From contig JBEKOM010000008.1 in the NCBI GenBank assembly GCA_049521795.1, positions 19,702 to 83,701 on the forward strand: DNA of 64,000 nt, in the 5' to 3' direction. The position numbers and the translations under genes were made by a program. Below, in pieces: positions 8,151 through 46,043 of this stretch (positions are counted from its first letter, which is position 1; each line of letters starts with the position of its first letter). The notes below the pieces were generated by a model. That model was not told where the DNA came from and searched no databases. It saw nothing but the letters and a program-made list of their open reading frames with translations. This DNA comes from Candidatus Bathyarchaeia archaeon (GTDB taxonomy: Archaea; Thermoproteota; Bathyarchaeia; Bathyarchaeales; Bathycorpusculaceae).

Positions 8151-9356
8151 TTGATCAAAGACCTTTCAGCCTTCTACTCCAAGAATGCTCTCAACATGAA
8201 ACGTTCCGAGATCCGCGAACTTTTGAAAGTGACCAGACGACCCGACATGATCAGCTTCGCAGGCGGACTTCCCGCTCCAGAAACTTTTCCCGTCAAAGAC
8301 CTCGAAGATATATCTTGTCAGATACTGAGAGAAAAAGGAGCCGAGGCCCTTCAGTACGGACCCACCGAAGGAGAATGGCCTCTGCGCGAAGAAATCGCCA
8401 AGTGGATCTCACGTGAAAAACCCGGAATCAAACCCGAAAACATCCTTGTCACGTCAGGATCGCAACAGGGTCTGGACATCATCTCCAAAGTCTTCCTGGA
8501 CCCGAAGGACACGGTAATAGTTGAGTTGCCAACGTACATCGGCGGTCTGCAAGCGTTCACAGCGTACAGAGCCAAGATGGTCGGCGTCCTTCAAGACGAT
8601 CAAGGAATGAGGATGGACCTCCTGGAAAAAACTTTGACCGGACTGGCAAAGAGGAAAAAGAAACAAAAATTCATCTACGTTGTCCCAGACTTTCAGAATC
8701 CTTCCGGAGTCACGATGTCCCTGGAAAGACGCAAGAGACTCTTGGAACTGGCATACGAGTACGAGCTTCCCGTCGTTGAAGACAGCCCGTACAGAGACCT
8801 CAGATTCGCAGGCGAAAGCGTTCCAGCCATTTTCAGTCTGGACAAAGAGAATCAAGTCATAGTCTTAGGAACCTTCTCCAAGCTGCTCTGCCCAGGACTA
8901 AGGTTGGCTTGGATAACGGCCCCTGCCGAGTGGATGGACAGGATGGTCGTCGCCAAACAGAGCATGGACCTCTGCTCGCCCACGTTCACTCAGCTAATAG
9001 CGGCCGAGTTCATGAAACGCGGGTTGATGCCGAAACAGGTCGAGAGTATCCGCAGACTCTATGCAAGAAAGCGTCAAGTGATGCTCGAAGCCTTGCAGAA
9101 ATTCATGCCGAAGGGTGTGACATGGACCAAGCCCGAAGGCGGACTGTTTCTGTGGGTCAAACTTCCGAAGAGAATGAGCACAGACGACCTATTTCCAAAG
9201 GCAATCGAAAACGGAGTGGTCTACGTAAAAGGCTCAGCCTTTCACTGCAACGGCAAAGGCCAGAACACCATGAGAATAAACTTCTCCTACCCATCAGAGC
9301 AGCAGATTGAAGAAGGCATCAAGCGCCTAGCCAAAATGATCAAAGAGAACGCATGA
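8151..9356 (+). CDS. PLP-dependent class I aminotransferase (LysN/ARO8-like)
   Basis: ISFAGGLP, GSQQGLD, FQNPSG, EDSPY, GTFSKLLCPGLRLAW. Confidence 0.92.
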   Translation: MIKDLSAFYSKNALNMKRSEIRELLKVTRRPDMISFAGGLPAPETFPVKDLEDISCQILREKGAEALQYGPTEGEWPLREEIAKWISREKPGIKPENILVTSGSQQGLDIISKVFLDPKDTVIVELPTYIGGLQAFTAYRAKMVGVLQDDQGMRMDLLEKTLTGLAKRKKKQKFIYVVPDFQNPSGVTMSLERRKRLLELAYEYELPVVEDSPYRDLRFAGESVPAIFSLDKENQVIVLGTFSKLLCPGLRLAWITAPAEWMDRMVVAKQSMDLCSPTFTQLIAAEFMKRGLMPKQVESIRRLYARKRQVMLEALQKFMPKGVTWTKPEGGLFLWVKLPKRMSTDDLFPKAIENGVVYVKGSAFHCNGKGQNTMRINFSYPSEQQIEEGIKRLAKMIKENA

Positions 9357-29638: not shown

Positions 29639-30344
29639 TTTCCAAACCCTTCCCGCGCGCGCTCCCCCGTCTTCCCAAAGACAACTCGCGCACGCCAATG
29701 TTGATTAGGCCCATTAGTACTATTTAAGCCCTGTGAAACAATGTTTCAGTCCTTACGAGCGCGTGCTGAAAATGAAGCATCTGATACAGGTTCAGTTCTG
29801 ACAAGCTTTCTTTCCATTCTCCATCCTCGAAGATACGCGCGCATCAGACTCTTGGCTAGACGGTCAGCAAGATTCTTCGTTAAAACAAACAGCTCTCCCG
29901 GATGCTTCCCATACAAAGTCTCCACATGCACAACCCATGATCGCGTAGTATGCCTCACATACACACTCTGTAAGAGCCCCAACAAAGCTGTCCAATTCAC
30001 CATCTCAACACGCCTAAAATCAACGGGCAAACAACCCTCAGCCGGCGCGCGCTACTTGATTGTATCTCGTCTCAAAGGAGGCTTCTCTTTCCAAAGGTCT
30101 TCGGACAGAATCTTCCCGCAATGTGGCAATTGACTATCTTTCTGCTCATCCAATTCATCTCCTGCCAAACTTTGCGGCACCCAGCGGTCGCACAGCGAAA
30201 AAGAAAAAAAGGGAAAGAAGCCGTCAAGAAGCGAATTGGAGACATCGCCTCGGGGAGTGAGGCTAGGCAAACCCACAAGTGTGCGTTGACTCGGCGGACA
30301 TGTTAAAACAACTGCTAGGCCTTCGAACCGTGGCTTGCAGAGCG

Positions 30345-32264: not shown

Positions 32265-32369
32265 GCCGGGGTCTCCTAGCTAGGTATGGAGCAAGCCTGG
32301 AGACGATCAAATTCGCCTAACAGCTTGTGGCCTCTCGGGGCCACGTGGGTTCAAATCCCACCCCCGGCG
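32265..32369 (+). tRNA. tRNA-Ser(GGA) with a 19-nt intron at 37/38 (32303-32321); integration target
   Basis: Acceptor GCCGGGG/CCCCGGC, anticodon stem CAAGC/GCTTG with GGA at 32299-32301, long variable arm, GTGGG-TTCAAAT-CCCAC T arm, G73; relaxed BHB around the intron. Confidence 0.92.
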
Positions 32370-32370
32370 C
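32353..32370 (+). repeat. attL core (3' end of tRNA-Ser)
   Basis: 17/18 identical to 44462-44479. Confidence 0.85.
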
Positions 32371-32429
32371 TTTTTTACCAGTAAATCTTATATAGATTCC
32401 GCATTTAACTTTAAAGAGGGCTGGTCGAT

Positions 32430-32954
32430 TTGGGAAAGACAGAGAGGATCAAGGATAGATCCATCTACGTTTATCTTCCATCCGTTGACCAAAAGAAACG
32501 ATGGGATGAACAGGCCAGCAAGCATGGTGTAAGCACGTCAAAGTTTGTGATACAGCAGGTAGAGAATTCGCTAAGGCAGACAGAAGATGACAATTACAAA
32601 TCCATTGGTGAACTTTGGAAAGAGAATAAACAACTAAAAGAGCAGTTCGATAAAGAGGCGAGAGAAAAACACGTACTTGAGATTGCGATTGAAAGGTTGG
32701 AAGAAGAACTAAGAAAGTACCGTGCGCAGCCGTTTCTTGATGACGAGTTTGTCGGCACACGACCGTATCAAAAAGAGCTCGTGGAAATTCTCAGGGAAGG
32801 ACGGATCGTAAAGAGTGAGGAGGTTCTGTCTGGATTAAGGATTAACCCTACTGAACAGGAGACAGTTAAGGCTGTTTCAAAACAGCTAGAAAATCTAGAA
32901 AGTTATGGCGTAATTAAGTCTTCACCGAAGGGTTGGAGGTGGATTGAGAGATGA
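32430..32954 (+). CDS. Integrase-associated DNA-binding protein (RHH-like N-terminus, coiled coil, wHTH-like C-terminus)
   Basis: SIYVYLP...WDEQASKHGVSTSKFVIQQV; central heptads; VSKQLENLESYGVI...GWRW; ATGA overlap with the integrase. Confidence 0.7.
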   Translation: MGKTERIKDRSIYVYLPSVDQKKRWDEQASKHGVSTSKFVIQQVENSLRQTEDDNYKSIGELWKENKQLKEQFDKEAREKHVLEIAIERLEEELRKYRAQPFLDDEFVGTRPYQKELVEILREGRIVKSEEVLSGLRINPTEQETVKAVSKQLENLESYGVIKSSPKGWRWIER

Positions 32955-33910
32955 GTCTTGATAATAATGTTGAATCAGTCAGTTCTATCAATGAGGCGAG
33001 ACTTGCTGAAGGATTTCTGAAGGACTGCGAACTTAGAAGACTTTCTCCTGAGACAATTGAAGGGTACAAATCGAGTCTCCGAATAACTTCACAAATTCTC
33101 AGAAAACAAGGGCTAAGCTTAAGCAAATTGGACAAGGAATCTCTGAAAAGAGTTTTGGAGTTTCTAGTTGATCAAGGCTACGTCTGTAACACGCTACTCA
33201 ATTATTTCGCCACTCTGTCTGGTTTCTGTGACTATTTAGTCTGGGAAGGAATAGCAGACACAAATCCTGTCGTTCCTTTTAGAAAAAGATACGTTAGGCA
33301 ATTTAAAAACCAGCATGACCCGGAAAGGAAATTAATTTCAGTCGACGAGATGGCGATGCTGATTAATTCAATATTAGATCCTAGAGACAAAGCAATTGTC
33401 ACTCTTCTGGCCAAAACTGGAATTCGAAGGGGAGAACTCATCGGAATAGACATAAAAGACATCGATTGGGTTAATCAAAGTATCCAACTCAAACCTCGTC
33501 CAAAAAGAAGCAACTGCACGGTCTTTTTCGACGACGAAACTGCCCGAGTTTTGAGAAGGTGGTTAAGTGCAAGGCGGGACTTTAATGTTCAACAGGGGTG
33601 CGAAGCCGTCTTCGTAAATGAAGGCGGGACGAGGTTGCAACGCCATGGAGTGACGGATGCAGTAACAAAGCATGCTGAACGCGTCGGATTACACAACCCT
33701 ATGAGCAAAAGAATCGAAGACCATTTCACACCTCACTGCTGCAGACACTGGTTTACGACGCATCTCAGAAGAAATGGCATGAGAAGAGAGCTAATCCAAG
33801 AGCTGAGAGGAGATGCTAGAAACGCAGCAGTCGACATTTACGATCATATAGATAAGAAAGAGCTGAGGCGAGCCTACCTGGCAGCAATACCAGTGTTGGG
33901 CATTAACTGA
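32951..33910 (+). CDS. Tyrosine recombinase/integrase (intact, not SSV-type split)
   Basis: TGIRRGE (R), K-containing loop, TPHCCRH (HxxR), LRGD, IYDH (Y); N-terminal core-binding domain. Confidence 0.95.
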   Translation: MSLDNNVESVSSINEARLAEGFLKDCELRRLSPETIEGYKSSLRITSQILRKQGLSLSKLDKESLKRVLEFLVDQGYVCNTLLNYFATLSGFCDYLVWEGIADTNPVVPFRKRYVRQFKNQHDPERKLISVDEMAMLINSILDPRDKAIVTLLAKTGIRRGELIGIDIKDIDWVNQSIQLKPRPKRSNCTVFFDDETARVLRRWLSARRDFNVQQGCEAVFVNEGGTRLQRHGVTDAVTKHAERVGLHNPMSKRIEDHFTPHCCRHWFTTHLRRNGMRRELIQELRGDARNAAVDIYDHIDKKELRRAYLAAIPVLGIN

Positions 33911-34053
33911 ACTCTCACCTCTTTCGGACGCTCCCTGTTAGGTTTTAGAAAAACGTAGCGCGCGTCAAACTCCGAGCAAAACGCTACTCATTGTCTTTTC
34001 TTGTGGAAAGGAAAAGAACCAAAGATGTCTATTGACTGCCTTTAGTGTGGGGG

Positions 34054-34082
34054 ATGGGGCCTCCACCCAACTTTACCGGTAA
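34054..34082 (+). repeat. 29-bp internal island repeat, copy 1
   Basis: ATGGGGCCTCCACCCAACTTTACCGGTAA; 26/29 identical to 37874-37902. Confidence 0.85.
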
Positions 34083-34275
34083 GAATATGCTTGGGTTATG
34101 CTTGATTGGAGTTTAGCGCGCGCGCTCGTAGTTTCGTGTATTCTGATAATGGCACTTTCGTAGTATTGGATAAAAGCATATATAGAAAAGCAGCGGGCGC
34201 AAAACCGTTTGACGAAAAGCTTAAAAGATGATACATAAAATACAATGAAATATTCGTTATGGAGGGGGAACAAAG

Positions 34276-35160
34276 TTGAAAAACAGGAAATTGAAAATGA
34301 GTGTGTTGCTGATTGCAACTTTGATAGTGGCCGTGGGAATATATGGTATCTGGGCTAACGTTGGTCCGAAAAGCACTGGGTTAGCTGGAGATAACTCAGG
34401 ATTCTCTTTGGTACGTCCAGCTTTTGCGCAGAGTATGGCTGCAGCAACCACATTTCTGGATCAAGAGGCTGGAATATCAATATACCTGAATACCGGAAGT
34501 TCTATGGACGTGAACGCTGCGGCAGCCAACCTCGTAAACATAGAAAACAAAACCTCTGACTGGGCCATAGGTTCTGTTCCTCTAAGCAGTCCTTTTACAA
34601 GTTCTGACTACCCACACTGCTTTGTCCATAAGAGCGGGTGGATCGTTGTCTACTATCTTAAAGCAACCTCACAAAATATGGCTTACATAAGCAAGATGAT
34701 AGTCTGGAAATCTGTCGCGAACGTAAATTCTCCGTTGAATGACACCAAGCTGGAGCAGGGACTGAGAATCGCTTGTACGCCTCTTGGGATATCTACAACA
34801 AATGCGCAATATTATGACTTCCAGTACCCAAGCGCCACCAACTTACTAATAGCAGCCAAGACCACAATAAATGGATCACCAGCCACGTTCAACATAGAAA
34901 TCCCAGGAACCATGACAGTCTACGAACAAGCTTGGTGCCACAAGACTCACTCTTGGACGTCATGGGGAAACCCAGTGTCACCATCAGCTTTCAAAATCGA
35001 TCAAACACAAGTTGACAGTTGGATAGGAAGCGACGAGGTAACTATTGGTATGCTTGCGTTTCTACCGACCAATCCGCTGGCACTAGACATGTTTCATGTG
35101 GTTTACGTTGATGGAGACACTGGTTATTGCGGTATCTGTCTAACTATACTTTACTCCTAG
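34276..35160 (+). CDS. Secreted/membrane-anchored hypothetical protein
   Basis: GGAGG RBS and TTG start; N-terminal basic plus hydrophobic segment; 294-aa ORF. Confidence 0.8.
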   Translation: MKNRKLKMSVLLIATLIVAVGIYGIWANVGPKSTGLAGDNSGFSLVRPAFAQSMAAATTFLDQEAGISIYLNTGSSMDVNAAAANLVNIENKTSDWAIGSVPLSSPFTSSDYPHCFVHKSGWIVVYYLKATSQNMAYISKMIVWKSVANVNSPLNDTKLEQGLRIACTPLGISTTNAQYYDFQYPSATNLLIAAKTTINGSPATFNIEIPGTMTVYEQAWCHKTHSWTSWGNPVSPSAFKIDQTQVDSWIGSDEVTIGMLAFLPTNPLALDMFHVVYVDGDTGYCGICLTILYS

Positions 35161-36186
35161 TTGTCAAAGCCTCGGAAGTGCCTGTGCTTGAAAAAGATTC
35201 CAGTGACATACCTCTGCTTAATCAGCCTACTGATTGCTATCGCCACATGCTTTACGTTGACGCATGCGAAAACTTTGCAGACTTCGAGTCTGCCTCGTGC
35301 AAGTATGCATGAAAGCGCAATTCAAGGAAATAGCATAGAGCTTAATAACACAGACTACAATTCAACTACTGCTTTTGAACATCCCGACCTTGGCAACGTG
35401 ACCGAAAACGTTACGCAAAGAGTGGTCGTAGAGTACGGAGATTATGCGGCTCAGCACACAGTGTATCCGCCTGTCGGCCTGCCGTCAATACTCTCGACAA
35501 GGATAATCGTAGAATATGCTGATACATCACTTCTGATAGGTCTTCAAAGGCCTGAGGTTTTGAACCAAACAATCGCGCCGAGAATAATCATAGAATATGC
35601 CGATATGTCGTTTCAACTAAGCCTTCAGAGGCCTGAGACCCTCACCCAGACAATGGCGCCCAGAATAATTATTGAATACGCAGATTACGCGACAACCATT
35701 GCCGTGTCGCCTTATATGGGTCCGCCGCCATATTCGAACGGCACGAGTCGTCCCAGCATTGTCGTAACGCGGGAGCCATCAGGGCCCCAAGTTCCTGAAA
35801 ATCAGAGAGTTCTTGTTTCAGCGAATGTTACTGATGCAGAATCAGGAGTAAGAAACGCAACACTGGAATACACTCTGGACAACAGCACAGACTGGTCTCG
35901 TGCACATGCCACGCCTATGAGCCTCAGCACGACCCTGCAGCCTCAGAATTCTCTGGCTCTCTCTTTCAACGCAACAATTCAGGGGCAATCGTCTGGCACG
36001 CGCGTACGTTTCAGGATAGTTGCCTACGACTTCGCTGGAAACAATGCAACGATAGATGGTGTGATAGATACCACTACTTATCTAGTAGTGCCAGAGTTTC
36101 CATCGGTCGTACTGCTGCCACTGTTTGTAATGGCAAGTCTGTGTGCAGCCATAGTCTACAGAAGAAGGCACTCAGTAAGTGGCTAA
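35161..36186 (+). CDS. Surface protein with four 27-aa RIIxEYAD repeats, Ig-like domain and PEF-CTERM-like sorting tail
   Basis: Repeats 81 nt apart (35500, 35581, 35662); C-terminal VVPEFP + TM + RRRH. Confidence 0.8.
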   Translation: MSKPRKCLCLKKIPVTYLCLISLLIAIATCFTLTHAKTLQTSSLPRASMHESAIQGNSIELNNTDYNSTTAFEHPDLGNVTENVTQRVVVEYGDYAAQHTVYPPVGLPSILSTRIIVEYADTSLLIGLQRPEVLNQTIAPRIIIEYADMSFQLSLQRPETLTQTMAPRIIIEYADYATTIAVSPYMGPPPYSNGTSRPSIVVTREPSGPQVPENQRVLVSANVTDAESGVRNATLEYTLDNSTDWSRAHATPMSLSTTLQPQNSLALSFNATIQGQSSGTRVRFRIVAYDFAGNNATIDGVIDTTTYLVVPEFPSVVLLPLFVMASLCAAIVYRRRHSVSG

Positions 36187-36450
36187 CGAAGCGCGCGCGT
36201 TTTTGTGCATAAAAGACAGCGCGCGCGATCGAGTCTGCTGACATTATTGTAATCGCTGAGTCCCCTTTCTTTTCCTTTCGTCTCTTTCTTCCTTGTTATA
36301 TTTGATACAGTTCTAGGAAGTATGAGTTTCAGCTCATGCGATAGAAGATGGTTCCAAAAAACTTTAATACCTAAACACAGAGGACAATCTTCAGGTCATT
36401 GAGAAGTAAGAATTAGGGGAAAAAATCCACCAACCGGGAAGCGACTAGGA

Positions 36451-37797
36451 TTGAAAACAAAAATGGTTGTCGTTATCGCTATTGTGTTATTGGCTCAGTG
36501 CTCAATAGCTCCATTTCTCCATGAAGCAATAGCAGATTATTCGGGAAACCATTGTCTAAGTTACAACGGGGTCAATGATTATGTAGTTTTCGGGAATTCG
36601 CCAGTTTTCCATTCAGCCGCGCTCACTCTTGAAGCTTGGATTAAACCCAAATACGACATCATATATGGAAGCAATTCACAATATGGGCACCAAAGTGGAG
36701 TGGTCGCAACCACTCGGCCGCAAGGGATGTCGACTGACACTGGATGGCAAGTGTGGTTCAGTTATTCGAATGGCTACCTTGGCTTTGCATTTTGGTACGC
36801 GCCAGCTGTTGGAGTGTCTTACCAGTCAATCAAGCAGGTCTGGTACAATGATTCGTGGTACCACATTGCGGTTACGTATGACCCAACGCTACCCAATGGA
36901 AACATAAAGTTCTTCGTGAACGGAACCCTTGACTCCGAACTTAACGAAAATCATACTATTTCTTATTCCACCGCGGGGCCTTTCGAGGCTGGTCTGTTGC
37001 CAGGTGGACCAGATGGCGGTCACCCTTTTGGTGGCCTTATTGACGAAGTGCGAGTGTGGAACATCTCTAGGCCGCAGGCAGATATTCAAAGCGACTGGAA
37101 TAGAACACTTATCAGCACTGAAATGGCAAACCCCAACCTGATCGGATACTGGCGCTTCGACGAAGGAAGCGGACCGACTTCCCACGACTACTCGATTTAT
37201 CAAAACGATGCCGCTCTAGCCCCAGCCCCATCTAATCCGCAATGGTTTAGTCCAGGCGCCCCGATAGTGCTCGCGTCTCATGATGTAGCCGTCACGAATG
37301 TTGTGTCTTCTAAGACTGGTTGCCTGCCAATGCCAACAGTTGGTCAAGGCTTCAGCGTCACCATAAACGTCACAGTGGCAAACCAAGGCAGCTACACTGA
37401 AACCTTTAACACAACAGCATATGCCAACGCAAACATCACGGGATCAGAAAACGTTACCTTACCAGCTGGCGGCTCCACGACAGTCACGTTCACATGGAAC
37501 ACTACTGGCTTTGCCTTTGGCAACTACACCATAAGCGCTTACGCTTGGCCTGTCCCAGGCGAAACCAACACGGCGAACAACAACCTCACAGGCGGAACTG
37601 TTGAAGTAACTATTCCAGGCGACCTCAATGGCGACGGAACGGTCAACATTTTGGATGCTATATTACTTGCTAACGCCTTTGGCGCCACGCCCGGCAGCTC
37701 AACCTGGAACCCCAACGCAGACATAAACGGCGACGGTGTCGTAAACATCTTAGACGCCATAATCCTCGCAGGCCACTTCCAACAACACTACCCATAG
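36451..37797 (+). CDS. Secreted LamG + CARDB + dockerin protein
   Basis: TLEAWIKP, WYHIAVTYD, GLIDEVRVWN; HDVAVTNV...NQGSYTETF; GDLNGDGTVNILD pair. Confidence 0.88.
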   Translation: MKTKMVVVIAIVLLAQCSIAPFLHEAIADYSGNHCLSYNGVNDYVVFGNSPVFHSAALTLEAWIKPKYDIIYGSNSQYGHQSGVVATTRPQGMSTDTGWQVWFSYSNGYLGFAFWYAPAVGVSYQSIKQVWYNDSWYHIAVTYDPTLPNGNIKFFVNGTLDSELNENHTISYSTAGPFEAGLLPGGPDGGHPFGGLIDEVRVWNISRPQADIQSDWNRTLISTEMANPNLIGYWRFDEGSGPTSHDYSIYQNDAALAPAPSNPQWFSPGAPIVLASHDVAVTNVVSSKTGCLPMPTVGQGFSVTINVTVANQGSYTETFNTTAYANANITGSENVTLPAGGSTTVTFTWNTTGFAFGNYTISAYAWPVPGETNTANNNLTGGTVEVTIPGDLNGDGTVNILDAILLANAFGATPGSSTWNPNADINGDGVVNILDAIILAGHFQQHYP

Positions 37798-37873
37798 CCC
37801 CTTTTTCCTAGTTCAGCGCGCGCTGCTGCAAGCATCCCCTAGAAGGCGCTGCTCGCTCTGCCACACTCGAAAA

Positions 37874-37902
37874 ATGGGGCCTCCACCCGATTTTACTGGT
37901 AA
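37874..37902 (+). repeat. 29-bp internal island repeat, copy 2
   Basis: ATGGGGCCTCCACCCGATTTTACTGGTAA. Confidence 0.85.
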
Positions 37903-38127
37903 AACGCGCGCGCAAGCCTGCACGTTAGTGTGTAAAGTCTTTTATTAGCTACCGAACATAATAGAGAAAATGTTTGGCGTAGTGAATGGCTCTCCAGAAG
38001 GGTCATCACCACTCGCTGCGATACGCAAACTTACAGTGTGCAATTGCACACTTAAGATTTTCGCAAGAGTGGCTTTAACCCTTAGGGAACCTTCCTCCTC
38101 ACGCCAAATAGGAGGGGTCTATAAAAA

Positions 38128-38313
38128 ATGGGAATAAATCTGGAAAACCCGAAGACATTCTTGCCTTTATTACTATTCATAGGCTTTGTCTTTTCATTGA
38201 TAGGGTTGGGCTTGTGGACTTGGACATCAAACGCAGGGCTAGTGATTGTTGGTTATCTGACCATGATGCTGGCAGTATTTCTATGGGTTCTCATAAATCG
38301 CAGAAGGTTCTAA
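38128..38313 (+). CDS. 61-aa two-TM membrane protein
   Basis: GGAGG RBS, two hydrophobic helices, basic C-terminus. Confidence 0.7.
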   Translation: MGINLENPKTFLPLLLFIGFVFSLIGLGLWTWTSNAGLVIVGYLTMMLAVFLWVLINRRRF

Positions 38314-38351
38314 ACTAAATGCTTGACCTAATACTGTCACCCTTCCCTTTT

Positions 38352-38430
38352 TTGAAAATAATCGAACAAAGATATGATCTTATTGTCACATCTCCACCCT
38401 ATCATCATTGATCCCTTTGCAGGAACAGGG
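38352..38430 (+). pseudogene. Remnant of a beta-class amino DNA methyltransferase
   Basis: LKIIEQRYDLIVTSPPY (38352-38402) directly followed in another frame by IIIDPFAGTG (38401-38430). Confidence 0.65.
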
Positions 38431-38678
38431 TGCATGTCTGTTAAGTTTACAGTATCCCTTTGGGTTATCCGCAAGAAGGTCTAGCCACTAATGTTGGGCC
38501 CCAGCGCGCGCGCTATTGAAATATTCAAACATGATTCCAATGTAAACATAACCTGATCTTAGACACGTTAAGGATGGGTGAGTCTTAAATGGCATTTGGC
38601 AACGTCAAAGTCATAGGATTTTGAGCACTCTACAACGAGCACAACAGGTGTGCGTGCTAAGCGAGAAAGTATTTTAAG

Positions 38679-39155
38679 ATGACTAACAGGTGTAAGGTTG
38701 TGCAAGAGAAATTGCAGAAAAACGGCAAACAGGAAGCCTCAAATCAGATCCTATCAGGTGAAGGTTTCCCTGACGGAAATGCGAAGGGAGAAGTAATTAA
38801 AGTTAGAAGATTGGAACTAGATTTAGGCAAGAAAGGACTATTCTTATCCTGCGAACCAAGGAAAATCATAGTCGCACAGGAGCTTCTCGCTATAGACGGT
38901 GCAAGTTTTGCCATAAGGGCTTTTCTCATGTCTGAGAATGTCGAACATTTGTTACCAAAAGCGATTCTACTAGAAAAGTGTAATGTCGAGCTTTTGAACG
39001 GTTTAGTGGCCGCTGAAAGTGGTAAACCTAATATTGTTTTGCCCATTTACGTATGGGATGTCCGTTCTGAGCTTTTGAATAGAATCGAGAACGGAGAAAC
39101 ATTGGAGATAAAGGTAAAACAGCATAAGGCAATCATCCATAGACTGTCGAAATAA
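38679..39155 (+). CDS. Divergent aconitase X swivel-domain (DUF126, phosphomevalonate dehydratase small subunit-like) protein
   Basis: LSGEGFPDGNAKGEVI, KIIV, ASFAI, PKAILLEK...LLNG, IENGETLEI follow the DUF126 pattern; KGST motif absent. Confidence 0.62.
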   Translation: MTNRCKVVQEKLQKNGKQEASNQILSGEGFPDGNAKGEVIKVRRLELDLGKKGLFLSCEPRKIIVAQELLAIDGASFAIRAFLMSENVEHLLPKAILLEKCNVELLNGLVAAESGKPNIVLPIYVWDVRSELLNRIENGETLEIKVKQHKAIIHRLSK

Positions 39156-39178
39156 ACACATTTAGAAAAAGACCACTA

Positions 39179-40063
39179 TTAGAAACCCTGGAAACACTCT
39201 GTAGTAATCCTAATGAAACCGTCAACAACTGAATCAAGGTCAAATCTAAATTCTGAATAACGTTTTATCAATCTTCTTATGGCCAGCGAGACCAAAGGAA
39301 CATTCGCCATAACTTCATTTATCACTTCGAACCAACGGTTCTCGTACTCGTCAGCAAGTTTCCTGTCAAACTCCTGCAGGGCCAGAATTACAGAAACCTT
39401 GCCCAGGCTTCTTGCTGTATGCAAAACTAGACAAGGAAATGTCAAGTCCTCTGAATCAATTGACTCTCTAAGTGCCCTTATATTCAATCGTTTTTTCTCT
39501 TCGAGGAGTGCTTCAAGAGACAATTGCCGATAGCTAATGTCACTCCTAAACATCAACTTGTAAGCTTTTGTGTCCCCGATCAGATTCAGGAGTATGGACA
39601 GGTATTCTCGTGATATTCCTTCATCTTTTGTAAGCGAATAAATTCTATTCAAATTGCTCATGAACTCTGAGCCCCCGTGCGGAGGGTACTCTTTTAGAAC
39701 ATAGTGAGCTATTTCATGGGCCAGAGCGAGTCTCTTTTCGCTGTCTGAGCGTTTAGCAAGGTCTTCAAGGTCGATACATATTTCTGGGGGTGGATATGGC
39801 ATGAAGAGAATTGCAGGAAGCGAGGAGACAAAGAATCTTGTTTGTTTAAGGCTAGTTCTTTTTTTTAACTCTCTAATAATGTAATTGTGAAAGACAATTC
39901 TGTTGTTACACATGGTAACATTGACAGTTTCATCTTTTCCAGAAAGCTGACTGGAAATCGTAGCAATCTCCAAGCAAAGGCTTTTTTTCATTTGCAGGGA
40001 TATGTTGCCAATCGTTTTCGCGTTAATTGACAATAATGTCTCCCTTGAGTTCTGTATGGTCAT
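39179..40063 (-). CDS. Putative zincin-like metallopeptidase (HEXXH)
   Basis: LALAHEIAHYVLKEYPPHGGSEF; ATGA overlap with the upstream gene. Confidence 0.65.
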   Translation of the reverse strand: MTIQNSRETLLSINAKTIGNISLQMKKSLCLEIATISSQLSGKDETVNVTMCNNRIVFHNYIIRELKKRTSLKQTRFFVSSLPAILFMPYPPPEICIDLEDLAKRSDSEKRLALAHEIAHYVLKEYPPHGGSEFMSNLNRIYSLTKDEGISREYLSILLNLIGDTKAYKLMFRSDISYRQLSLEALLEEKKRLNIRALRESIDSEDLTFPCLVLHTARSLGKVSVILALQEFDRKLADEYENRWFEVINEVMANVPLVSLAIRRLIKRYSEFRFDLDSVVDGFIRITTECFQGF

Positions 40064-40881
40064 TCTCTAATCAAATCATCTATAAAAGAGGCATCCTCTA
40101 CTTTTTCGCCACTCTGCCACAATTCTCTTTCAAACTCATCTCTTAGCTGCTGGGCCCTTTCTTTGTTTTCGACCAATTTTCCCTCAAAAATCTTCTTCGT
40201 TTCTTCATCTCTGTTTGAATAAACAATGTACTTGTCGCCTATAATAGTAGCTTCAAGAAATTTTGACTTCTCGTCGATCTTACCACAACGAATCTTGAAG
40301 TTTGAATTTGTCTCTTTTAGAAACTTCTCCAATATCTTTTTTCCCTCTTTAACGTAGCCTTTGTAGTTTTCATCCCGAATGTATTGTTTGAGAACAAGTG
40401 CTGCATTGTACTTATCAAAGAAATATTTCACTTTGAGACCCATTTCAGCCTTTCCGTCCCTAGATGCAGATGCCTTCAAAAGCAAATCGAAGTATTTTCT
40501 TCTAAACTTGGACTTCTCTGAACTGGGAAAAGGAAACGCGGAAGGGTCATATTCAGAGGCTAGTATAACCCCTGGTGTCGTGGAAACGATACAAATATCG
40601 GTTGAATTTTCGACAACCCATCTGGATTTTTCGTAAAATTGTTTTGCAGTATGGAGTTCCTTGTAGTTCCTTATATTAACCGCGGAAATGACAATTCCTC
40701 CAGATGTAAGTCCTGACAACGCGATACCCAAAGCAAATGCGAGTTGATTCAGGTAGACAAGCACACCCAAGCACGCTGCTATAACAATTAGGATTAGGAT
40801 GACTGCTATTCCTCTAAGACCTAATCTATCGTAAATACTACGAAATTCATTGAATTTTCTGTTTGAACTTATTTCGCTCAT
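40060..40881 (-). CDS. Two-TM membrane protein with a soluble alpha/beta (TrmB/PLD-like) domain
   Basis: Two N-terminal TMs; DICIVSTT...IIGDKYIV...FERELW pattern; no HKD motif; ATGA overlap. Confidence 0.6.
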   Translation of the reverse strand: MSEISSNRKFNEFRSIYDRLGLRGIAVILILIVIAACLGVLVYLNQLAFALGIALSGLTSGGIVISAVNIRNYKELHTAKQFYEKSRWVVENSTDICIVSTTPGVILASEYDPSAFPFPSSEKSKFRRKYFDLLLKASASRDGKAEMGLKVKYFFDKYNAALVLKQYIRDENYKGYVKEGKKILEKFLKETNSNFKIRCGKIDEKSKFLEATIIGDKYIVYSNRDEETKKIFEGKLVENKERAQQLRDEFERELWQSGEKVEDASFIDDLIRE

Positions 40882-41210
40882 ATTTCTTTCTCCAAGATTA
40901 CCTTTAATGTGTATATTACCATATAAATAATAGATGGTGCTGCCGCGAACACGAGGAAGACGCTTAAATAGAATATCGAGGTGCGCGAATCTTCAAGTTG
41001 TGGCGATGCACCAAAGATGGAAATGAAGGAAGCCAAAAATAGGCTGAAAATTGTCCAAGGAGAATTGCGTAGAATTTGCCGACGCACCGCCCGGAATTCT
41101 CTTAATTGCTCTCCGAGAGCTAAAGAAAGAAAAACCAGAACTAATGATGCACTGGTCATGCAAAGCCCAGCTAATCCAATTAAAGTTGCCGAGTCGATCA
41201 AACCGATCAC
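40878..41210 (-). CDS. Small three-TM membrane protein
   Basis: Three hydrophobic segments; GTGA and ATGA overlaps with both neighbours. Confidence 0.7.
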   Translation of the reverse strand: MIGLIDSATLIGLAGLCMTSASLVLVFLSLALGEQLREFRAVRRQILRNSPWTIFSLFLASFISIFGASPQLEDSRTSIFYLSVFLVFAAAPSIIYMVIYTLKVILEKEI

Positions 41211-42352
41211 ATCTTGTCTAGGTGCTTGATGTCATCCAGAAGAAGAGAGCGGTCTTTTTCGCTTGCGGTTTCTGGGGGGCCTCCTATTTCAGATATGACG
41301 GTTGGACACCTATTTTCTAATGCTGTGGACACTTCAGTGCGCACTCTGTCTGCGTGTTTATTGTCTGTGATTATGAATACGCTCGGCCCTGTATCGATAG
41401 AATAGTGAACTGGAAAATGAGCTTCTCTTAACTTGCTTACGAGGTGAATAATAGATACTGTCTCAGGCATCCAGACTAATGCTCCGCATTGCAATAATAG
41501 GCTGTGGAAAAATCTTGTATCGGATTCAGCCATCTCTCCTATTTTGAAAACATCTCTATTTTCAACATGGTTGACAAGTTCAAAGACGTGTTGTGCTTTA
41601 TTCGTAGCCCATTTTTCATAGAAGGGAGATGATAAAGCTCTCCTGTGCATTTCTTCAGTGGTAATTCCTAAGGGCAATGGCACCACAACCATTTTTAAAG
41701 GCAGTTCGCCGTCATCGATTCTTACCGAATAAGATTCCTCGGGAGCTATACCCTCATATGAAAACCATAGAGCAACACCTCCAGCAGCGGATCTTGATGC
41801 AGACCCAGCGAATAATCGTGCATAAGTAGAGACAAGCCTGGATTTCCTGCTCATTTCTTCCCCATAGGCGGCCGATATAATCGCCTTAGCGAGAGCAGCT
41901 CCAGCTGCAGCGGAAGTGCCAAGTCCCTTGGCATCAGACCCATTTTGAAACCTATTTCTTGATGCAATTAGCACTTTTGTCTTTATACCAGTATCGTTTC
42001 GAAAACATCGGATTACCTTAGACGCCCTTGTGAGACTTTTGTCAATTTGTTTCCCATTCACGATAAAAAGATCATCTTCTAGACGCCTGTCAAACTTCAC
42101 ATAGGTGATTGTTTGCATAACCTTGTGGCAAACTGAAACTGACGGGAAATACGCTAATCGTAGTTCACTATCAGACATTCCTAGATACTTCTCTAATCCT
42201 AAAATAGGATAGGCAGTGGCTGTGGCTTCTCCCTCAATTTTCTCTTCTTTTGGTAGCTTCGGTTTTTCTTCTAATTTCCCTTGCTGTTTGAGATAAGCAC
42301 GTATCTTTTCTGTTTCTTCTTTCAGTTTCTGAACAATTGATGCGTCAATCAT
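41207..42352 (-). CDS. Diphosphomevalonate decarboxylase homologue, mevalonate-3,5-bisphosphate decarboxylase-like
   Basis: N-terminal extension, AYPILGLEKYLG (Lys kept), PSVS, AKGLGTSAAAGAA, YARLFAGSASRS, LWFSYEGI, IDTGPS (catalytic Asp kept). Confidence 0.8.
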   Translation of the reverse strand: MIDASIVQKLKEETEKIRAYLKQQGKLEEKPKLPKEEKIEGEATATAYPILGLEKYLGMSDSELRLAYFPSVSVCHKVMQTITYVKFDRRLEDDLFIVNGKQIDKSLTRASKVIRCFRNDTGIKTKVLIASRNRFQNGSDAKGLGTSAAAGAALAKAIISAAYGEEMSRKSRLVSTYARLFAGSASRSAAGGVALWFSYEGIAPEESYSVRIDDGELPLKMVVVPLPLGITTEEMHRRALSSPFYEKWATNKAQHVFELVNHVENRDVFKIGEMAESDTRFFHSLLLQCGALVWMPETVSIIHLVSKLREAHFPVHYSIDTGPSVFIITDNKHADRVRTEVSTALENRCPTVISEIGGPPETASEKDRSLLLDDIKHLDKM

Positions 42353-42362
42353 TCCAGTTTTC

Positions 42363-43202
42363 TCATTCTGCAACCTTCTCTGCCTCTCCTACTAACACTC
42401 TAACTCTATCGAACGCTATGTCTAAACATTCGTCAACTACCTTATCGAAATCATCGTTGGAGATTATTGGGATTCCATTCTCTCGAGCTAAACTAACAAG
42501 ATGATTTTGTATGACTCGTATTTCATTAAACACGGGGATGAATCTCTCCGCATCTCGTCGGATGTGTGTAGAAGACTTCCGCAAAAGAAGACGTTCCCTA
42601 TGTACCTTAGGATCTCTTACTTCTAACATCATGGGTATGACGCTTTTATTTTGAAAGGCAGTGCTCCCACATAGTTTTTGTGTCAAGTAAAGGCTCTCAA
42701 TAGCTACGCTTTCTCCATCTCGCAAGCATCTTTCTAGCAGTCGTTCTATTGCATCGGCAATGCACTTTGAATGCTCTTCATATGCTTTTATGATATTGTG
42801 TTCTGTTGGTTTTTTGTACTTCACCCTCCAACATTCATATACACTACTGAAGAAAAGCGGATACTGCTCTTCAGGCACAACACTTCTCAAGCACTCTCTG
42901 ATGGCGTCAGCCCCTATTGTGTTTCGCAGTCCCATTCTAAACGCCAACTCTGCTGTGACACTTGTTTTCCCGGATGCATGGCCACCTATTACTAGAAGTA
43001 TTATCGGATCTGTCAATTTGCCTGATTTGACAAGGTCATGGTACCTCAAGAACAGTTCAAATCTACTCGCATATTTTGGCGAAAGCTTTGCGAGATTCCG
43101 GATAATGTCGTTGGAATTTGAACTATGGGTTGAGATTTTGCAAGCTTGCTTGAGATCGAGTCCTGTTGAAAAGATGGCCAACTCTTTGACATCAAGAAAC
43201 AT
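42363..43202 (-). CDS. 2-phosphoglycerate-kinase-family P-loop kinase, probable mevalonate-3-phosphate-5-kinase
   Basis: GGHASGKTS Walker A, AELAFRMG, DAIRECLR, SSVYECW, IES, IQNHL; lies between two decarboxylase-fold genes. Confidence 0.8.
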   Translation of the reverse strand: MFLDVKELAIFSTGLDLKQACKISTHSSNSNDIIRNLAKLSPKYASRFELFLRYHDLVKSGKLTDPIILLVIGGHASGKTSVTAELAFRMGLRNTIGADAIRECLRSVVPEEQYPLFFSSVYECWRVKYKKPTEHNIIKAYEEHSKCIADAIERLLERCLRDGESVAIESLYLTQKLCGSTAFQNKSVIPMMLEVRDPKVHRERLLLRKSSTHIRRDAERFIPVFNEIRVIQNHLVSLARENGIPIISNDDFDKVVDECLDIAFDRVRVLVGEAEKVAE

Positions 43203-43223
43203 AGACTTGGCCTCTCAATGAAT

Positions 43224-44210
43224 CTAATTTTGAACGATTGAAGCTGGACCAGCAACCTTGTATTCAACAGCAGGAAAACGTTTTGTTAATTCCTTGAATA
43301 TTTCTCTTGAATCTTTCTTCAAACACAATACGTTTACTGCACTACCACCGGTGATAATAAAATACGCCTGATGCCCATTTTCTCTTAACTGTCTAACGTA
43401 GTTTAGGGCTTCAAACATCTGATCTTTGATAACTCGCAACCCGCACCATTCGAGCAAGTAATGAAAATTCATTGTGTCTTGTTCCGCAATTTGCATAATC
43501 CTAATAATATCTCTCTTTTTAGCGGCCTCTTTCAATTCTTCAACCATTTTTGATCTGCTTGCAACCCGCTGTGGAAAGTCTGGGTGTTTCACGATAGCTT
43601 GATGAATTTCGTCAGAGCTGTGTCGATTGATTCCTTTAAAGCCTATTACGAAAATCGAGAGATCTTGAAGCTGTTCATTGCTCAATAGTAAACTTGCGTG
43701 GCAATTATCAGAGATTATTTCGGTCAAAGATAATCCTCCTAAAAGGCTTCGGTAAACGCTTTCAGACCCTTGTCTAGCAATATCAGTCACCTTTGCATCT
43801 AGTTTGAGGTCGAACATGTTAGAAACCGCGAGCGCTAGAGCACAAGCACCGGAATCTGAGCTACCCGAGATAATGCCAAAATTGCGTGAAGTGATTTTTA
43901 ATCCCACTCTTAGCCCTGCAAGGTCTTGTAGTGCCAACACCATTTTTTTCATGTCATCTATGCGTTTGTTGTCAAGGTTTTTGCGGATTTCTTTCCCTTC
44001 AGCGACATCAACTATACCAAGCTGGATTTCATTTTTTTGGGGAAGTTGCTCCACAAGGGTCTCGGTTCTTACATATTCACGATCATCAGTAACTGAAATG
44101 CCTGCGTTGGAATACGCTGGAACTCTTCTGTCCCAATCCTTCAGGCCACCCAAAAGCAAAACTCCAATTGCCGGGTATGCCCTCGCAAGCACTTTTTCTT
44201 TCATTTTCAT
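43224..44210 (-). CDS. Mevalonate-3-kinase-like GHMP protein
   Basis: AYPAIGVLLLGG, SNAGI, SRNFGIISGSSDSGA, SESVYRSLLGGL, SDEIHQ, AEQDT..FH, ITGGS (Thr replacing the decarboxylase Asp), matching my recollection of Thermoplasma M3K. Confidence 0.85.
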   Translation of the reverse strand: MKMKEKVLARAYPAIGVLLLGGLKDWDRRVPAYSNAGISVTDDREYVRTETLVEQLPQKNEIQLGIVDVAEGKEIRKNLDNKRIDDMKKMVLALQDLAGLRVGLKITSRNFGIISGSSDSGACALALAVSNMFDLKLDAKVTDIARQGSESVYRSLLGGLSLTEIISDNCHASLLLSNEQLQDLSIFVIGFKGINRHSSDEIHQAIVKHPDFPQRVASRSKMVEELKEAAKKRDIIRIMQIAEQDTMNFHYLLEWCGLRVIKDQMFEALNYVRQLRENGHQAYFIITGGSAVNVLCLKKDSREIFKELTKRFPAVEYKVAGPASIVQN

Positions 44211-44258
44211 TCCCAACTGAAATGACGTTAAGTGGTTGTTCTTAATTGCTAATTTGCA

Positions 44259-44266
44259 TATATAAA
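44259..44266 (-). promoter_or_regulatory. Probable TATA box of the mevalonate operon
   Basis: TTTATATA on the minus strand about 50 nt upstream of ATG 44210. Confidence 0.5.
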
Positions 44267-44461
44267 AGATTTGTATTAATAGGCTAAAATCGAAGCATGT
44301 TTTGAGCTTGTTTTTGCTGGACAAGCCTGATTCAAGAGTCGTCAGCATAAGTGAGAATTTGAATGCACGTTTACTTGTAGCGCGGCTCGGCAGCGCCGGA
44401 GAGATTCGAATTCTCGTCGCGCTCTTATGATGGGCTGACTTCTACTAGTAAACTGGTGCTG

Positions 44462-44481
44462 AAATCCCACTCCCGGCGCCA
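44462..44481 (+). repeat. attR: displaced tRNA-Ser 3' end including CCA
   Basis: AAATCCCACTCCCGGCGCCA; 17/18 match to the tRNA 3' end. Confidence 0.85.
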
Positions 44482-44537
44482 ACAAACCTCTGGTGCTTCT
44501 CGAACTTTAGTTTCATTTTCTCTTCGTGGCAAGCGAA

Positions 44538-46043
44538 TTAAGGATTTAGACTTGCTGTTGGCTTGAACTCTGGTGGTTTGCGAACTTTCGTTGCTTGCTC
44601 AAGCGCGTAGGCCAACTTGATGAGTGTGGGTTCTTGCCATGCTTTGGCAAAGAATGAAATGCCGATTGGCAGACCGAAGATGTGTCCCGCGGGCACGGTT
44701 ATGTGTGGGTACCCTGCTACTGCGGCAGGTGACGTACAATCCATGTCCCAATTGGTGGCATCGCCGTTGATCAAGTCTATGGTCCACGATGGACCACCTG
44801 ATGGCACGACGATTGCGTCCAGTTTGTATTTTCGCATGGTCGCATCGATGCCTTCTTTGCGTGTCAGACGACGATTCTTTGCGAGTGAATCGAGGTACTT
44901 TTTGTAATGCAGTGAGCCCTTTTTTTGCGCGGTTTCCATGTGTTCCTGTCCAAAATATGGCATCACACGGTCTTTGTTTTCCTCGTTGAACTTGATGACT
45001 TCGGCCAGCGTTTTCACGCGGGCTTTCGTGCTCGCGAGATATTTGTTCAAATCTGCCTTGAACTCGTAATGCAAAACCTCCAGCTCGGTCTTGCCGAATT
45101 TTTTGAAGTTCGGTACATCGGCTGGGTCAACAATTACCGCTCCCATCTGCTTCATCACGTCAAGGCACGACTCAAAAATCGTTATGATGCGTTTATCAGT
45201 ACCAACCATTTTTCTTGCAACGCCAATCCGCGCGCCCTTGAGGCCGTTCTTATCAAGGAACTGAGTGTAGTCTTCGAACGCTCGCTTCTTGCTAAGCCTT
45301 GTAGCTGAATCCTCTTCATCAACTCCCGTGAGTGCCCCGAGCAGAATCACCGCATCCGCGACAGTGCGCGCCATGGGACCAGCCGTATCTTGACTGTGGG
45401 CGATAGGAATTATTCCGCTTCGACTCCACAGGCCAAGCGTAGGTTTGATTCCCACAATGCCATTCGTTTGACTCGGGCAAATGAGCGAGCCATCGGTCTC
45501 TGTGCCAATCGCAGCTGCGCAAAGGTTTGCGGCTACGGCCGCACCCGAACCTGAGGACGAACCGCAAGCGGAACGGTCAAGCGCGTAAGGGTTACGTGTG
45601 AGTCCGCCGCGAGACGACCAACCACTGATAGAGTGCTTGCCTCGAAAATTCGCCCATTCGCTCAAGTTGGTCTTGCCCAAAATCACTGCTCCTGCTGAGC
45701 GCAATTTCTTGACTATGAACGCGTCGTGGGGTGCGATGTGTCCTGCGAGCGCAAGCGAACCCGCTGTCGTCTGCATTCGATCATGTGTGTCGATGTTGTC
45801 TTTGATTAGGATAGGAATACCATGGAGTAGACTACGCGTTTTGCCGTGGTGTCGCTCATTGTCAAGGGATGATGCGATAGCTAGAGCGTCGGGGTTCGTT
45901 TCTATGACGGCGTTCACCTTTGGGCCGTTCCTGTCTACCGCATCAATTCGATCTAGATAAAGCTCAACGAGACGACGCGATGTCAACTCGCCTGTGTTCA
46001 TCATCGATTGCAATTCAGAAATCGTCCATTCTCGCAAAGTCAT
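44538..46043 (-). CDS. Amidase-signature family enzyme
   Basis: LHGIPILIKDNI, GKTNLSEW, GSSSGSG, GTETDGS. Confidence 0.93.
   Translation of the reverse strand: MTLREWTISELQSMMNTGELTSRRLVELYLDRIDAVDRNGPKVNAVIETNPDALAIASSLDNERHHGKTRSLLHGIPILIKDNIDTHDRMQTTAGSLALAGHIAPHDAFIVKKLRSAGAVILGKTNLSEWANFRGKHSISGWSSRGGLTRNPYALDRSACGSSSGSGAAVAANLCAAAIGTETDGSLICPSQTNGIVGIKPTLGLWSRSGIIPIAHSQDTAGPMARTVADAVILLGALTGVDEEDSATRLSKKRAFEDYTQFLDKNGLKGARIGVARKMVGTDKRIITIFESCLDVMKQMGAVIVDPADVPNFKKFGKTELEVLHYEFKADLNKYLASTKARVKTLAEVIKFNEENKDRVMPYFGQEHMETAQKKGSLHYKKYLDSLAKNRRLTRKEGIDATMRKYKLDAIVVPSGGPSWTIDLINGDATNWDMDCTSPAAVAGYPHITVPAGHIFGLPIGISFFAKAWQEPTLIKLAYALEQATKVRKPPEFKPTASLNP

Follow-up and report, generated by a model that had tools for sequence, protein, structure and literature searches.

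The window described here is a 64,000-nucleotide stretch of DNA from a Candidatus Bathyarchaeia archaeon (GenBank assembly GCA_049521795.1, contig JBEKOM010000008.1, positions 19,702 to 83,701 of the forward strand). Between its positions 44210 and 41207, on the minus strand, lie three adjacent genes for a mevalonate-3-kinase (M3K) homologue, a P-loop kinase of the 2-phosphoglycerate kinase (2PGK)/COG2074 family, and a homologue of mevalonate-3,5-bisphosphate decarboxylase (BMD, also MBD). We read this trio, with a probability of roughly 0.72, as the lower half of a Thermoplasma-type mevalonate pathway that travels as cargo of a tRNA-integrated element and would give its host a redundant second route to isoprenoid precursors. 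Such precursors are essential for archaeal membranes, and the steps from mevalonate to isopentenyl diphosphate (IPP) vary by lineage for reasons that are debated, among them acid adaptation, ATP economy, and oxygen sensitivity. Here, a whole alternative lower pathway appears to be the cargo of a small integrative element.

In the proposed scheme, the product of gene 1 would phosphorylate mevalonate at the 3-hydroxyl, that of gene 2 would phosphorylate mevalonate-3-phosphate at the 5-hydroxyl, and that of gene 3 would remove the 3-phosphate together with CO2 to yield isopentenyl phosphate, which the host's isopentenyl phosphate kinase (IPK) and IDI2 would convert to IPP and dimethylallyl diphosphate. 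A 12.1-kb element with a tyrosine recombinase would have brought the module into a Bathyarchaeal tRNA gene, where it would run beside the canonical archaeal route. Gene content, catalytic residues, placement in the trees, the anatomy of the integration, and the distribution are observed; the three enzyme activities, their order, their expression, and any benefit to the host we infer from the sequence.

The three genes and their order

All three open reading frames (ORFs) lie adjacent and co-oriented in the ORF list, as a preliminary description of this stretch had stated. Gene 1 (43224..44210, minus strand) encodes 328 amino acids (aa) from an ATG at 44210, a start backed by homologues; its frame remains open to 44348. 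Gene 2 (42363..43202, minus strand; 279 aa) begins after a gap of 21 nt and is overlapped by 11 nt by gene 3 (41207..42373, minus strand), which encodes 388 aa from a TTG at 42373, with an alternative ATG start at 42352, 7 codons further in. Antisense ORFs listed over the operon have no support.

The product of gene 1 matches the Pfam domains M3K_C (9.2e-25) and MVD-like_N (3.1e-17), both above cut-off, and its best NCBIfam family is mev_kinase (NF040848), where it scores 207.9 bits, the family in second place reaching 79.9. In a sequence search of the PDB, its best solved relative is the Thermoplasma M3K Ta1305 (4rkp; 3.1e-36), the best diphosphomevalonate decarboxylase (DMD) reaching 4.6e-15. 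Alignment to Ta1305 and to the Staphylococcus epidermidis mevalonate diphosphate decarboxylase (MDD) places Leu19 at the position of the decarboxylase's catalytic Lys and Thr287 (IITGGS; IVTGGS in Ta1305) at that of the catalytic Asp, D283 in the S. epidermidis enzyme; Asp occurs at the Thr287 position in none of nine aligned homologues. Arg196 aligns with Arg185 of Ta1305 (4rkp chain residue 204, by count of a 19-residue tag) and is invariant in the M3K alignment (A1). According to the literature, which we cite here and below from the available portions of each paper, this Asp is conserved in DMD, phosphomevalonate decarboxylase (PMD), and MBD but not in M3K, and Arg185 is required for phosphotransfer (PMC9254496). 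The gene 1 product would thus be unable to decarboxylate, because its catalytic Asp is replaced by Thr. In a decarboxylase-fold tree of 83 rows, picked from 220 extracted genes and including no assayed DMD, gene 1 falls in a 35-row M3K clade (SH-aLRT support 100) that holds all operon first genes, all 13 stand-alone M3K rows from Thermoplasmatota and Altiarchaeota, and one protein named mevalonate-3-kinase by NCBI. Its nearest neighbours in the tree, at 46-51% identity, are two Micrarchaeia loci, a metagenome-assembled genome (MAG) labelled Methanosarcinales, and two metagenome proteins. Relatives in genome contigs were found with the alignment as query, and none with gene 1 as a single query; viral contigs scanned with the M3K alignment gave no relative.

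Gene 3 was described beforehand as a decarboxylase-fold protein that, in contrast to gene 1, retains both catalytic residues, and this is borne out: Lys62 (EKYLG), Arg186, and Asp327 (DTGPS) are all present and invariant in the corresponding alignment (A2), with Asp327 aligned to Asp309 of PtoMBD. This Lys/Arg/Asp triad is reported as necessary for decarboxylation (PMC5177888). The best NCBIfam family is mev_decarb (NF040847; 207.3 bits), followed by the PMD model MvaD (176 bits), and the best solved relative is PtoMBD (7t71; 1.7e-33), ahead of the A. thermophila PMD (AthPMD; 2e-28); the alignment with 7t71 begins at residue 14, within an N-terminal extension that gene 3 shares with PtoMBD. 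The protein also carries a KGLGTSA motif. It falls in a 22-row clade with five Thermoplasmatales BMDs and 11 operon third genes, within a subclade (support 97) shared with the third gene of locus L010 and the proteins P0011, P0012, and P0013, whereas PMD-like proteins of Asgard archaea, those of Chloroflexota, and the MDD-like proteins of Bathyarchaeal relatives form separate clades outside it, with support of 99 each. The assignment of genes 1 and 3 to the M3K and BMD families thus stands on best curated family, best solved structure, and tree clade, and neither gene groups with DMD or PMD.

Gene 2 is the least certain member of the trio. Its Walker A motif spans residues 73-81, and it matches the family's models at E values of 3e-45 to 3e-31, with PRK12337 (154.5 bits) and PRK04220 (153.2 bits), both 2PGK models, at the top. 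It carries an N-terminal extension of ~65 aa that is absent from the ~200-aa mevalonate-3-phosphate 5-kinases (M3P5Ks) of Thermoplasmatales. A HMMER search returned 938 relatives at E <=0.001 and 15 at <=1e-30, a word-based search returned only the protein itself and one 85% relative, and a sequence search of the PDB gave nothing meaningful. In a FastTree phylogeny of 177 rows, gene 2 belongs to a 43-row clade (support 96) that includes every kinase found adjoining an M3K or BMD gene together with the Thermoplasmatales M3P5Ks, two of which pass the NCBI cut-off; a quick IQ-TREE tree of 61 rows recovers the same kinase split (SH-aLRT 94), with gene 2 as the first branch. Three representatives of the other large kinase clade pass the 2PGK cut-offs. 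The earlier assignment of gene 2 as a mevalonate-3-phosphate 5-kinase therefore holds in part: the protein is of the 2PGK family and sister to the M3P5K clade, but the 2PGK models score higher and the protein is not nested within that clade. We propose the assignment mainly by gene position, the middle place in the trio being shared with 10 other loci. Identity as a true 2PGK was considered and set aside; the 2PGKs that pass the cut-offs lie in the other clade, and the host has no other member of the family.

The gene order was surveyed with the M3K alignment, which gave 118 relatives, of which 80 loci were kept; matches aligned over less than 150 aa had been dropped before the loci were counted. 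All three families occur together in 14 of the 80, and 10 of these have the order and strand of the window. Four further loci hold M3K and the kinase on a contig that ends soon after, one holds M3K with a second MDD-fold gene, and M3K stands alone in 61, including all 39 loci from Thermoplasmatota and all 14 from Altiarchaeota, though only 30 of these 61 have at least 2.5 kb of sequence on both sides. Since the same order and strand recur in 10 of 80 M3K loci, the arrangement is not due to chance, and the clustering in pathway order noted previously is a recurrent feature. Among 80 loci obtained with the decarboxylase alignment, three have M3K and the kinase alongside, all of them already counted.

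A tRNA-integrated element in a Bathyarchaeal host

The trio lies on an integrated element of ~12.1 kb (32371..44461), delimited by attachment (att) repeats, a drop in GC content, and an empty site in a genome of the same genus. The GC content of its right half (38-44.4 kb) is 0.37-0.45, against ~0.49-0.52 in the flanks; for 38-44 kb it is 0.41, against ~0.49 around it. The integration target is an intron-containing class II tRNA gene (32265..32370, plus strand) with a 22-nt insert at the anticodon loop, a long variable arm, and an anticodon read from the alignment as GGA (Ser); Rfam matches it as tRNA at 32265-32369 with 41 bits (gathering score 29; E 3.2e-07), and ARAGORN reports no tRNA in the whole window. 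The 3' end of this gene contains attL (32353..32370), whose 18-bp core is identical at 17 of 18 positions to attR (44462..44479), a partial duplicate of the tRNA 3' end, and 44462-44487 matches the tRNA end of genome G001 at 26 of 26 positions. In G001, a single-contig genome of the same genus, the left flank (92% identity) runs through a single tRNA end straight into the first bases past attR. The integration module (32430..33910, plus strand) consists of a 174-aa protein, whose N-terminus we read as ribbon-helix-helix-like, and, with a 4-nt overlap, a 319-aa tyrosine recombinase (32951-33910; Pfam Phage_integrase 2.3e-25, PHROG integrase 2.9e-43). The mobile island anticipated in the preliminary description is confirmed by its integrase, its att repeats, the tRNA gene that it targets, and the congener in which the site is empty. 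PHROGs finds no viral hallmark genes on the island, which was accordingly rejected as a virus.

In a further genome of the same genus, G002, this tRNA holds an insert of 2.1 kb (L196, G002:C15, ~6234-8665), situated between the tRNA end and a partial copy, and 44 bp there match the window's element at its right end. Because G002 has its own insert there, the site has evidently been used repeatedly, and elements of this family seem to integrate at the tRNA again and again. Related integrases were collected at 60 loci (L217-L276), with 61-73% identity in Bathyarchaeia and ~37-60% in Methanotrichaceae, where most full-length matches lie at 53-59%; others were seen in Methanomassiliicoccales, other Thermoplasmatota, and Nitrososphaerales. 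The pair of 174-aa partner and integrase recurs in 46 of the 60 loci, and no M3K, kinase, or decarboxylase gene lies within 8 kb of the related integrase in any of the 59 other loci. The pair looks like the cassette of a widespread archaeal integrative-element family with variable cargo. Other tRNA-targeting archaeal elements likewise have an intact tyrosine recombinase, a duplicated att core taken from the 3' end of a tRNA gene, and a relative with the site empty; the present one differs from them in carrying a core-metabolism module. This mode of integration, with an intact recombinase, is presumably the one known as pNOB8-type.

The assembly is supported at attR, which is bridged into the flanking amidase gene by a 7309-bp contig from run X1 (37707-45015), possibly the source run, and by a 589-bp contig from run X3, which belongs to another study and shows no differences. 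At attL, no run contig reaches across by 31 letters or more, and unitigs break at the high-depth tRNA repeat. The joint expected upon excision (32370/44462) was not found in the run contigs, which cannot reveal rare forms. An identical 2819-bp contig in a separate metagenome collection was the sole match of a metagenome contig scan, and the trio proteins are present in assemblies from several sources. A chimera with Thermoplasmatales sequence was rejected: the trio proteins are only 30-36% identical to those of Thermoplasmatales, and the flanks of the element are Bathyarchaeal, with 92-93% DNA identity to same-genus genomes. These flanks, together with a relative of the same family (G280, below), bear out the Bathyarchaeal host that had been suspected.

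The host genome (G000; 2.44 Mb, 98.75% complete, estimated contamination 4.37%) has genes for mevalonate kinase (MVK), IPK, and IDI2 adjacent on one strand, two pairs of AcnX large and small subunits, one UbiD-family decarboxylase, and HMG-CoA reductase (HMGR), in agreement with the AcnX/UbiD route expected of such a host. Its canonical route, by way of MVK, an AcnX-type dehydratase, and a UbiD-type decarboxylase, is apparently intact, and because all of these genes are kept, the M3K-route operon would be redundant here. The host genome holds no further members of the trio's families. The operon is absent from the 10 same-genus genomes searched, no M3K model match above 98.6 bits was found in 60 relatives, and in a sample of 401 genomes of the class, M3K matches at E <=1e-30 were confined to G000 and G280. 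Genes of the MDD superfamily (E <=1e-10) occur in 10 of the 60 relatives, and the three that were scanned are of PMD/DMD type, with 272-290 bits against MvaD. A same-genus locus (L096, G009:C28) has MDD-fold fragments only, namely a 243-aa frame and two separate tblastn pieces, and is possibly a decaying PMD/DMD-like gene.

The second genome, G280, belongs to the same family as the host and is 95% complete. Protein P0012, labelled Candidatus Bathyarchaeota archaeon, is encoded exactly in it. Its M3K and kinase genes (G280:C9, ~900057-902182) are adjacent, low in GC, and only 30-32% identical to those of the window, whereas its decarboxylase is 58% identical and sister to gene 3; unlike the window's trio, that of G280 is scattered (loci L212, L213, and L215), with the decarboxylase at a second site (~1587940-1588890 on G280:C9), 688 kb from the other two genes and directly upstream of IPK. 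HMGR and IPK are present. MVK, AcnX, and UbiD were not found in this 95% complete genome (best scores 36.6 bits, 22.3 bits, and none, respectively). In its congeners G144 and G205, MVK, UbiD, AcnX, and IPK form one cluster; synteny with these genomes runs rightwards from the start of IPK, the left side being unrelated within 10 kb, and the three other genes of the cluster are missing together from G280. Its state looks like a completed pathway replacement. Because G280 has the trio, lacks recognizable MVK, AcnX, and UbiD genes, and places the decarboxylase upstream of IPK, it would appear to use the M3K route, and we regard it as the best indirect evidence that this route works in Bathyarchaeia; since the 58%-identical protein adjoins IPK, it also lends indirect support to gene 3 as a BMD.

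The host of the window, by comparison, looks like an early step of the replacement completed in G280. The two genomes, one with both routes and the other with the alternative only, would form a natural before-and-after pair for the displacement of a core pathway by horizontal transfer. More tentatively, and in our estimate doubtful, the operon may be a lower mevalonate module of a plug-in kind, seen while still in transit, with tRNA-integrating elements carrying the cassette between archaeal phyla, so that coexistence comes first and loss of the canonical route may follow. If so, this would provide a mechanism for the patchy occurrence of the Thermoplasma-type route across Thermoplasmatales, DPANN archaea, Asgard archaea, and Bathyarchaeia, and the peat labels of samples holding this DNA would suggest selection by acidity, oxygen, or iron stress.

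Known systems and competing explanations

The preliminary description regarded the trio as an undescribed system and the route as typical of Thermoplasmatales, and neither claim survives. The M3K route has been described as confined to Thermoplasmata and a small number of Micrarchaeota (PMC6107057); the trio has been reported in Micrarchaeota and described as acquired from Thermoplasmatales (PMC8975820); and the route has since been added for Heimdallarchaeia, Altiarchaeota, and Aenigmatarchaeota from non-acidic sites, with Bathyarchaeia reported to have PMD rather than the M3K route (PMC11052028). Our survey likewise finds the operon order to be common in DPANN loci. In the literature searched, we found no report of the M3K route in Bathyarchaeia, although the per-genome supplements of PMC11052028 and PMC8975820 may hold some, and a search by title and abstract, from 2022 on, found no mobile element with a Thermoplasma-type route. 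Within that literature, the system itself is thus already known, and the novelty lies in the lineage, in the mobile element as vehicle, and in the presence of a canonical route alongside.

Compared to the proteins of Thermoplasmatales (Ta1305 as M3K, Ta0762 as M3P5K, and Ta0893/PtoMBD as decarboxylase), those of the window have the same families, diagnostic residues, and MDD-fold clades at an identity of ~30-36%, and the donor of the module is not a close relative of Thermoplasmatales. The two differ in that the window's trio is adjacent and lies on a mobile element, whereas M3K stands alone in 39 of 39 Thermoplasmatota loci; in that the window kinase has 279 aa with its N-terminal extension against ~200 aa; and in that the window's host keeps MVK, which acidophilic Thermoplasmatales are reported to lack (PMC8975820). 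The pathway genes had been described as scattered in Thermoplasma. M3P5K and BMD are adjacent in two of five Thermoplasmatales genomes checked, an E-plasma (G063; L205/L199) and a member of the Cuniculiplasmataceae (G064; L206/L201), with M3K elsewhere; in this order, the genes are thus not fully scattered.

The closest match in gene order is provided by the 10 loci with the same order and strand, from DPANN clusters (Micrarchaeota, Aenigmatarchaeota, Iainarchaeota, and Marsarchaeota) and two MAGs labelled Methanosarcinales or Methanothrix. Three of these loci (L008, L009, and L010) hold the nearest relatives of the window's M3K, at 46-49% identity, with kinases of the same long type, although the window kinase is the most divergent of the operon set. 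In contrast to the window, these loci have no integrase within 6 kb except for two weak matches (L061 and L158), and most of their hosts have reduced genomes, from which the upper pathway may be missing (PMC8975820). The genome of L010 (G434, labelled Methanosarcinales), whose operon is the closest to that of the window, has no match for MVK or AcnX, while HMGR, IPK, and two UbiD genes are present; either it relies on the M3K route, or its bin or label is doubtful.

Several observations weigh against reading the trio as a functional Thermoplasma-type module. All three proteins fall short of the relevant NCBIfam cut-offs, at 207.9 of 440 bits for gene 1 (NF040848), 108.7 of 250 for gene 2 (PRK12339/NF008996), and 207.3 of 560 for gene 3 (NF040847). 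The operon-type relatives of gene 1 themselves score 134-186 bits with NF040848, a model that seems tuned to Thermoplasmatales, and four of five Thermoplasmatales BMDs are likewise below the NF040847 cut-off. For gene 2, the 2PGK models outscore the M3P5K model, all scores being below cut-off, whereas for the operon kinases of L010 and G280 the M3P5K model gives the best score. Its position as sister to the M3P5K crown group, rather than within it, involves a long branch (1.0) in unrooted trees, and its IQ-TREE placement comes from a quick rather than a careful search. The support for the clade of gene 3 is 94, short of 95, and the PMD-like proteins that are its closest outgroups have the KGLGTSA motif as well; the sequence by itself is compatible with gene 3 being an ATP-dependent PMD. 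In addition, the host has a complete alternative route, so that nothing in its genome needs the operon, and none of the 11 listed runs holding this DNA is on record as RNA. To our knowledge, the operon-type clade outside Thermoplasmatales has no assayed member.

Among the alternatives, the one that fares best, though we consider it unlikely, is mevalonate salvage or some other order of steps, in which the trio would draw on mevalonate or mevalonate-5-phosphate supplied by others or by the host's MVK, with gene 1 perhaps acting on mevalonate-5-phosphate, the proteins encoded downstream of the trio taking part in uptake, and the benefit falling to the element rather than consisting in a backup for lipid precursors. 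Substrate order is not readable from the sequence, three genes with 4-nt overlaps follow the decarboxylase, two of them encoding membrane segments, and the trio has been reported in a Micrarchaeon that lacks HMG-CoA reductase, where salvage is conceivable (PMC8975820). However, homologues of the downstream genes are lacking from the other operon loci, so that these genes are not a conserved part of the module; the host's MVK would already handle any imported mevalonate; and G280, which combines HMGR and the trio with no MVK that could be found, fits de novo flux through M3K.

Quite improbable, in our judgement, is an add-on of Haloarchaeal type, in which gene 3 would be an ATP-dependent PMD working with the host MVK and genes 1 and 2 would have other roles, for example gene 2 as a true 2PGK. 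The route of Haloarchaea and Chloroflexota (MVK, PMD, and IPK) likewise ends in isopentenyl phosphate and IPK, and its decarboxylase has the same fold and belongs to the same superclade, which includes the PMD-like proteins of Asgard archaea and Chloroflexota. Such a role would agree with the 176 bits of gene 3 against the PMD model, its match to the A. thermophila PMD structure (2e-28), the 2PGK models as the best curated models of the kinase, the occurrence of PMD/DMD-type genes in relatives, and the PMD reported in Bathyarchaeia (PMC11052028). That route, however, needs neither M3K nor a 2PGK-family kinase, and an adjoining M3K with its decarboxylation Asp replaced would have no role in it. 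Gene 3, moreover, groups with the Thermoplasmatales BMDs and operon third genes rather than with the PMD/DMD-like genes of Bathyarchaeal relatives, the three-gene order recurs in 10 loci from several phyla, and gene 2 lies outside the clade of those proteins that pass the 2PGK cut-offs.

Silent or decaying cargo, or an island misassembled onto the contig, is highly improbable: the operon is redundant in its host and absent from all 10 same-genus genomes searched, the contamination estimate is 4.37%, and attL is not crossed by 31 letters or more, but the three frames are open with their catalytic residues kept, diverged intact relatives (94.8%, 84.9%, and 73.8%) exist in other metagenomes, the duplication of the tRNA 3' end and the precisely empty site of G001 are what real integration leaves behind, and contigs of runs X1 and X3 cross attR, with the identical 2819-bp contig in another collection.

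If the trio is indeed a Thermoplasma-type module, it would constitute a bypass independent of iron-sulfur clusters and prenylated flavin mononucleotide, as was suggested from the outset, and the locus would provide enzymology and pathway engineering with M3K, M3P5K, and BMD variants that are mesophilic and do not come from an acidophile. Should the enzymes prove to be inactive or different, many 'Thermoplasma-type' annotations in DPANN and Asgard archaea will need revisiting.

Further features of the island and its setting

The trio is the first half of a run of six genes arranged head to tail on the minus strand. The start of a predicted membrane protein of 110 aa (40878..41210) overlaps the decarboxylase stop by 4 nt; a 273-aa protein with N-terminal hydrophobic segments (40060..40881) overlaps both of its neighbours by 4 nt; and a 294-aa protein with an HEIAH motif of the HExxH type (39179..40063), which overlaps the gene upstream by 4 nt, ends the run. 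These three genes (39179-41210, minus strand) look translationally coupled to the decarboxylase gene, and no homologues of them were found in any other operon locus examined. Searches of Pfam, NCBIfam, PHROGs, and PADLOC gave no family match for the 110-, 273-, and 294-aa proteins or for a 158-aa protein of the island. As a lead only, an ESM Atlas model of the 273-aa protein resembles DUF5753 and TrmB C-terminal domains (TM 0.58); the 294-aa HExxH protein matched only unnamed clusters in the ESM Atlas, and its single-sequence fold has a pLDDT of 36. A bolder extension of the proposed scheme would have the three co-transcribed downstream proteins adapt the module to its host by uptake or regulation. 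Upstream of the run, a TATA-box-like sequence, TTTTATATA (44259..44267, minus strand), was read by eye ~50 nt before the M3K start, against what we take to be the archaeal TATA-box consensus; it is a possible promoter of the operon.

Diverged relatives of the trio proteins were seen in other metagenomes, with M3K at 94.8% (P0001/P0065), the kinase at 84.9% (P0060), and the decarboxylase at 73.8% (P0011) identity; if these belong to one operon, the fall of identity in operon order suggests recombination or uneven constraint. Five runs that contain the window's DNA carry the label peat metagenome, and in three of these at least 85% of the sampled words are present. The M3K route has been proposed as an acid adaptation (PMC5177888), and a link of the operon to acidic peat is speculation.

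The left part of the island carries three predicted secreted or surface proteins (34276..37797, plus strand) of 294 aa, 341 aa (Ig-like), and 448 aa, the last with Laminin_G_3 (2.1e-20), Dockerin_1 (6.6e-13), and CARDB (2.3e-07) domains in Pfam. The combination of LamG, CARDB, and a type I dockerin in one protein is an unusual cargo next to a metabolic operon. To the right of attR lies the amidase gene (44538-46043, minus strand), which G001 lacks at the syntenic site; runs X2 and X4 have a ~91% identical copy in another context, on contigs of very high depth. To the left of the island, an ORF of 1842 aa spans 24170-29698 on the minus strand.

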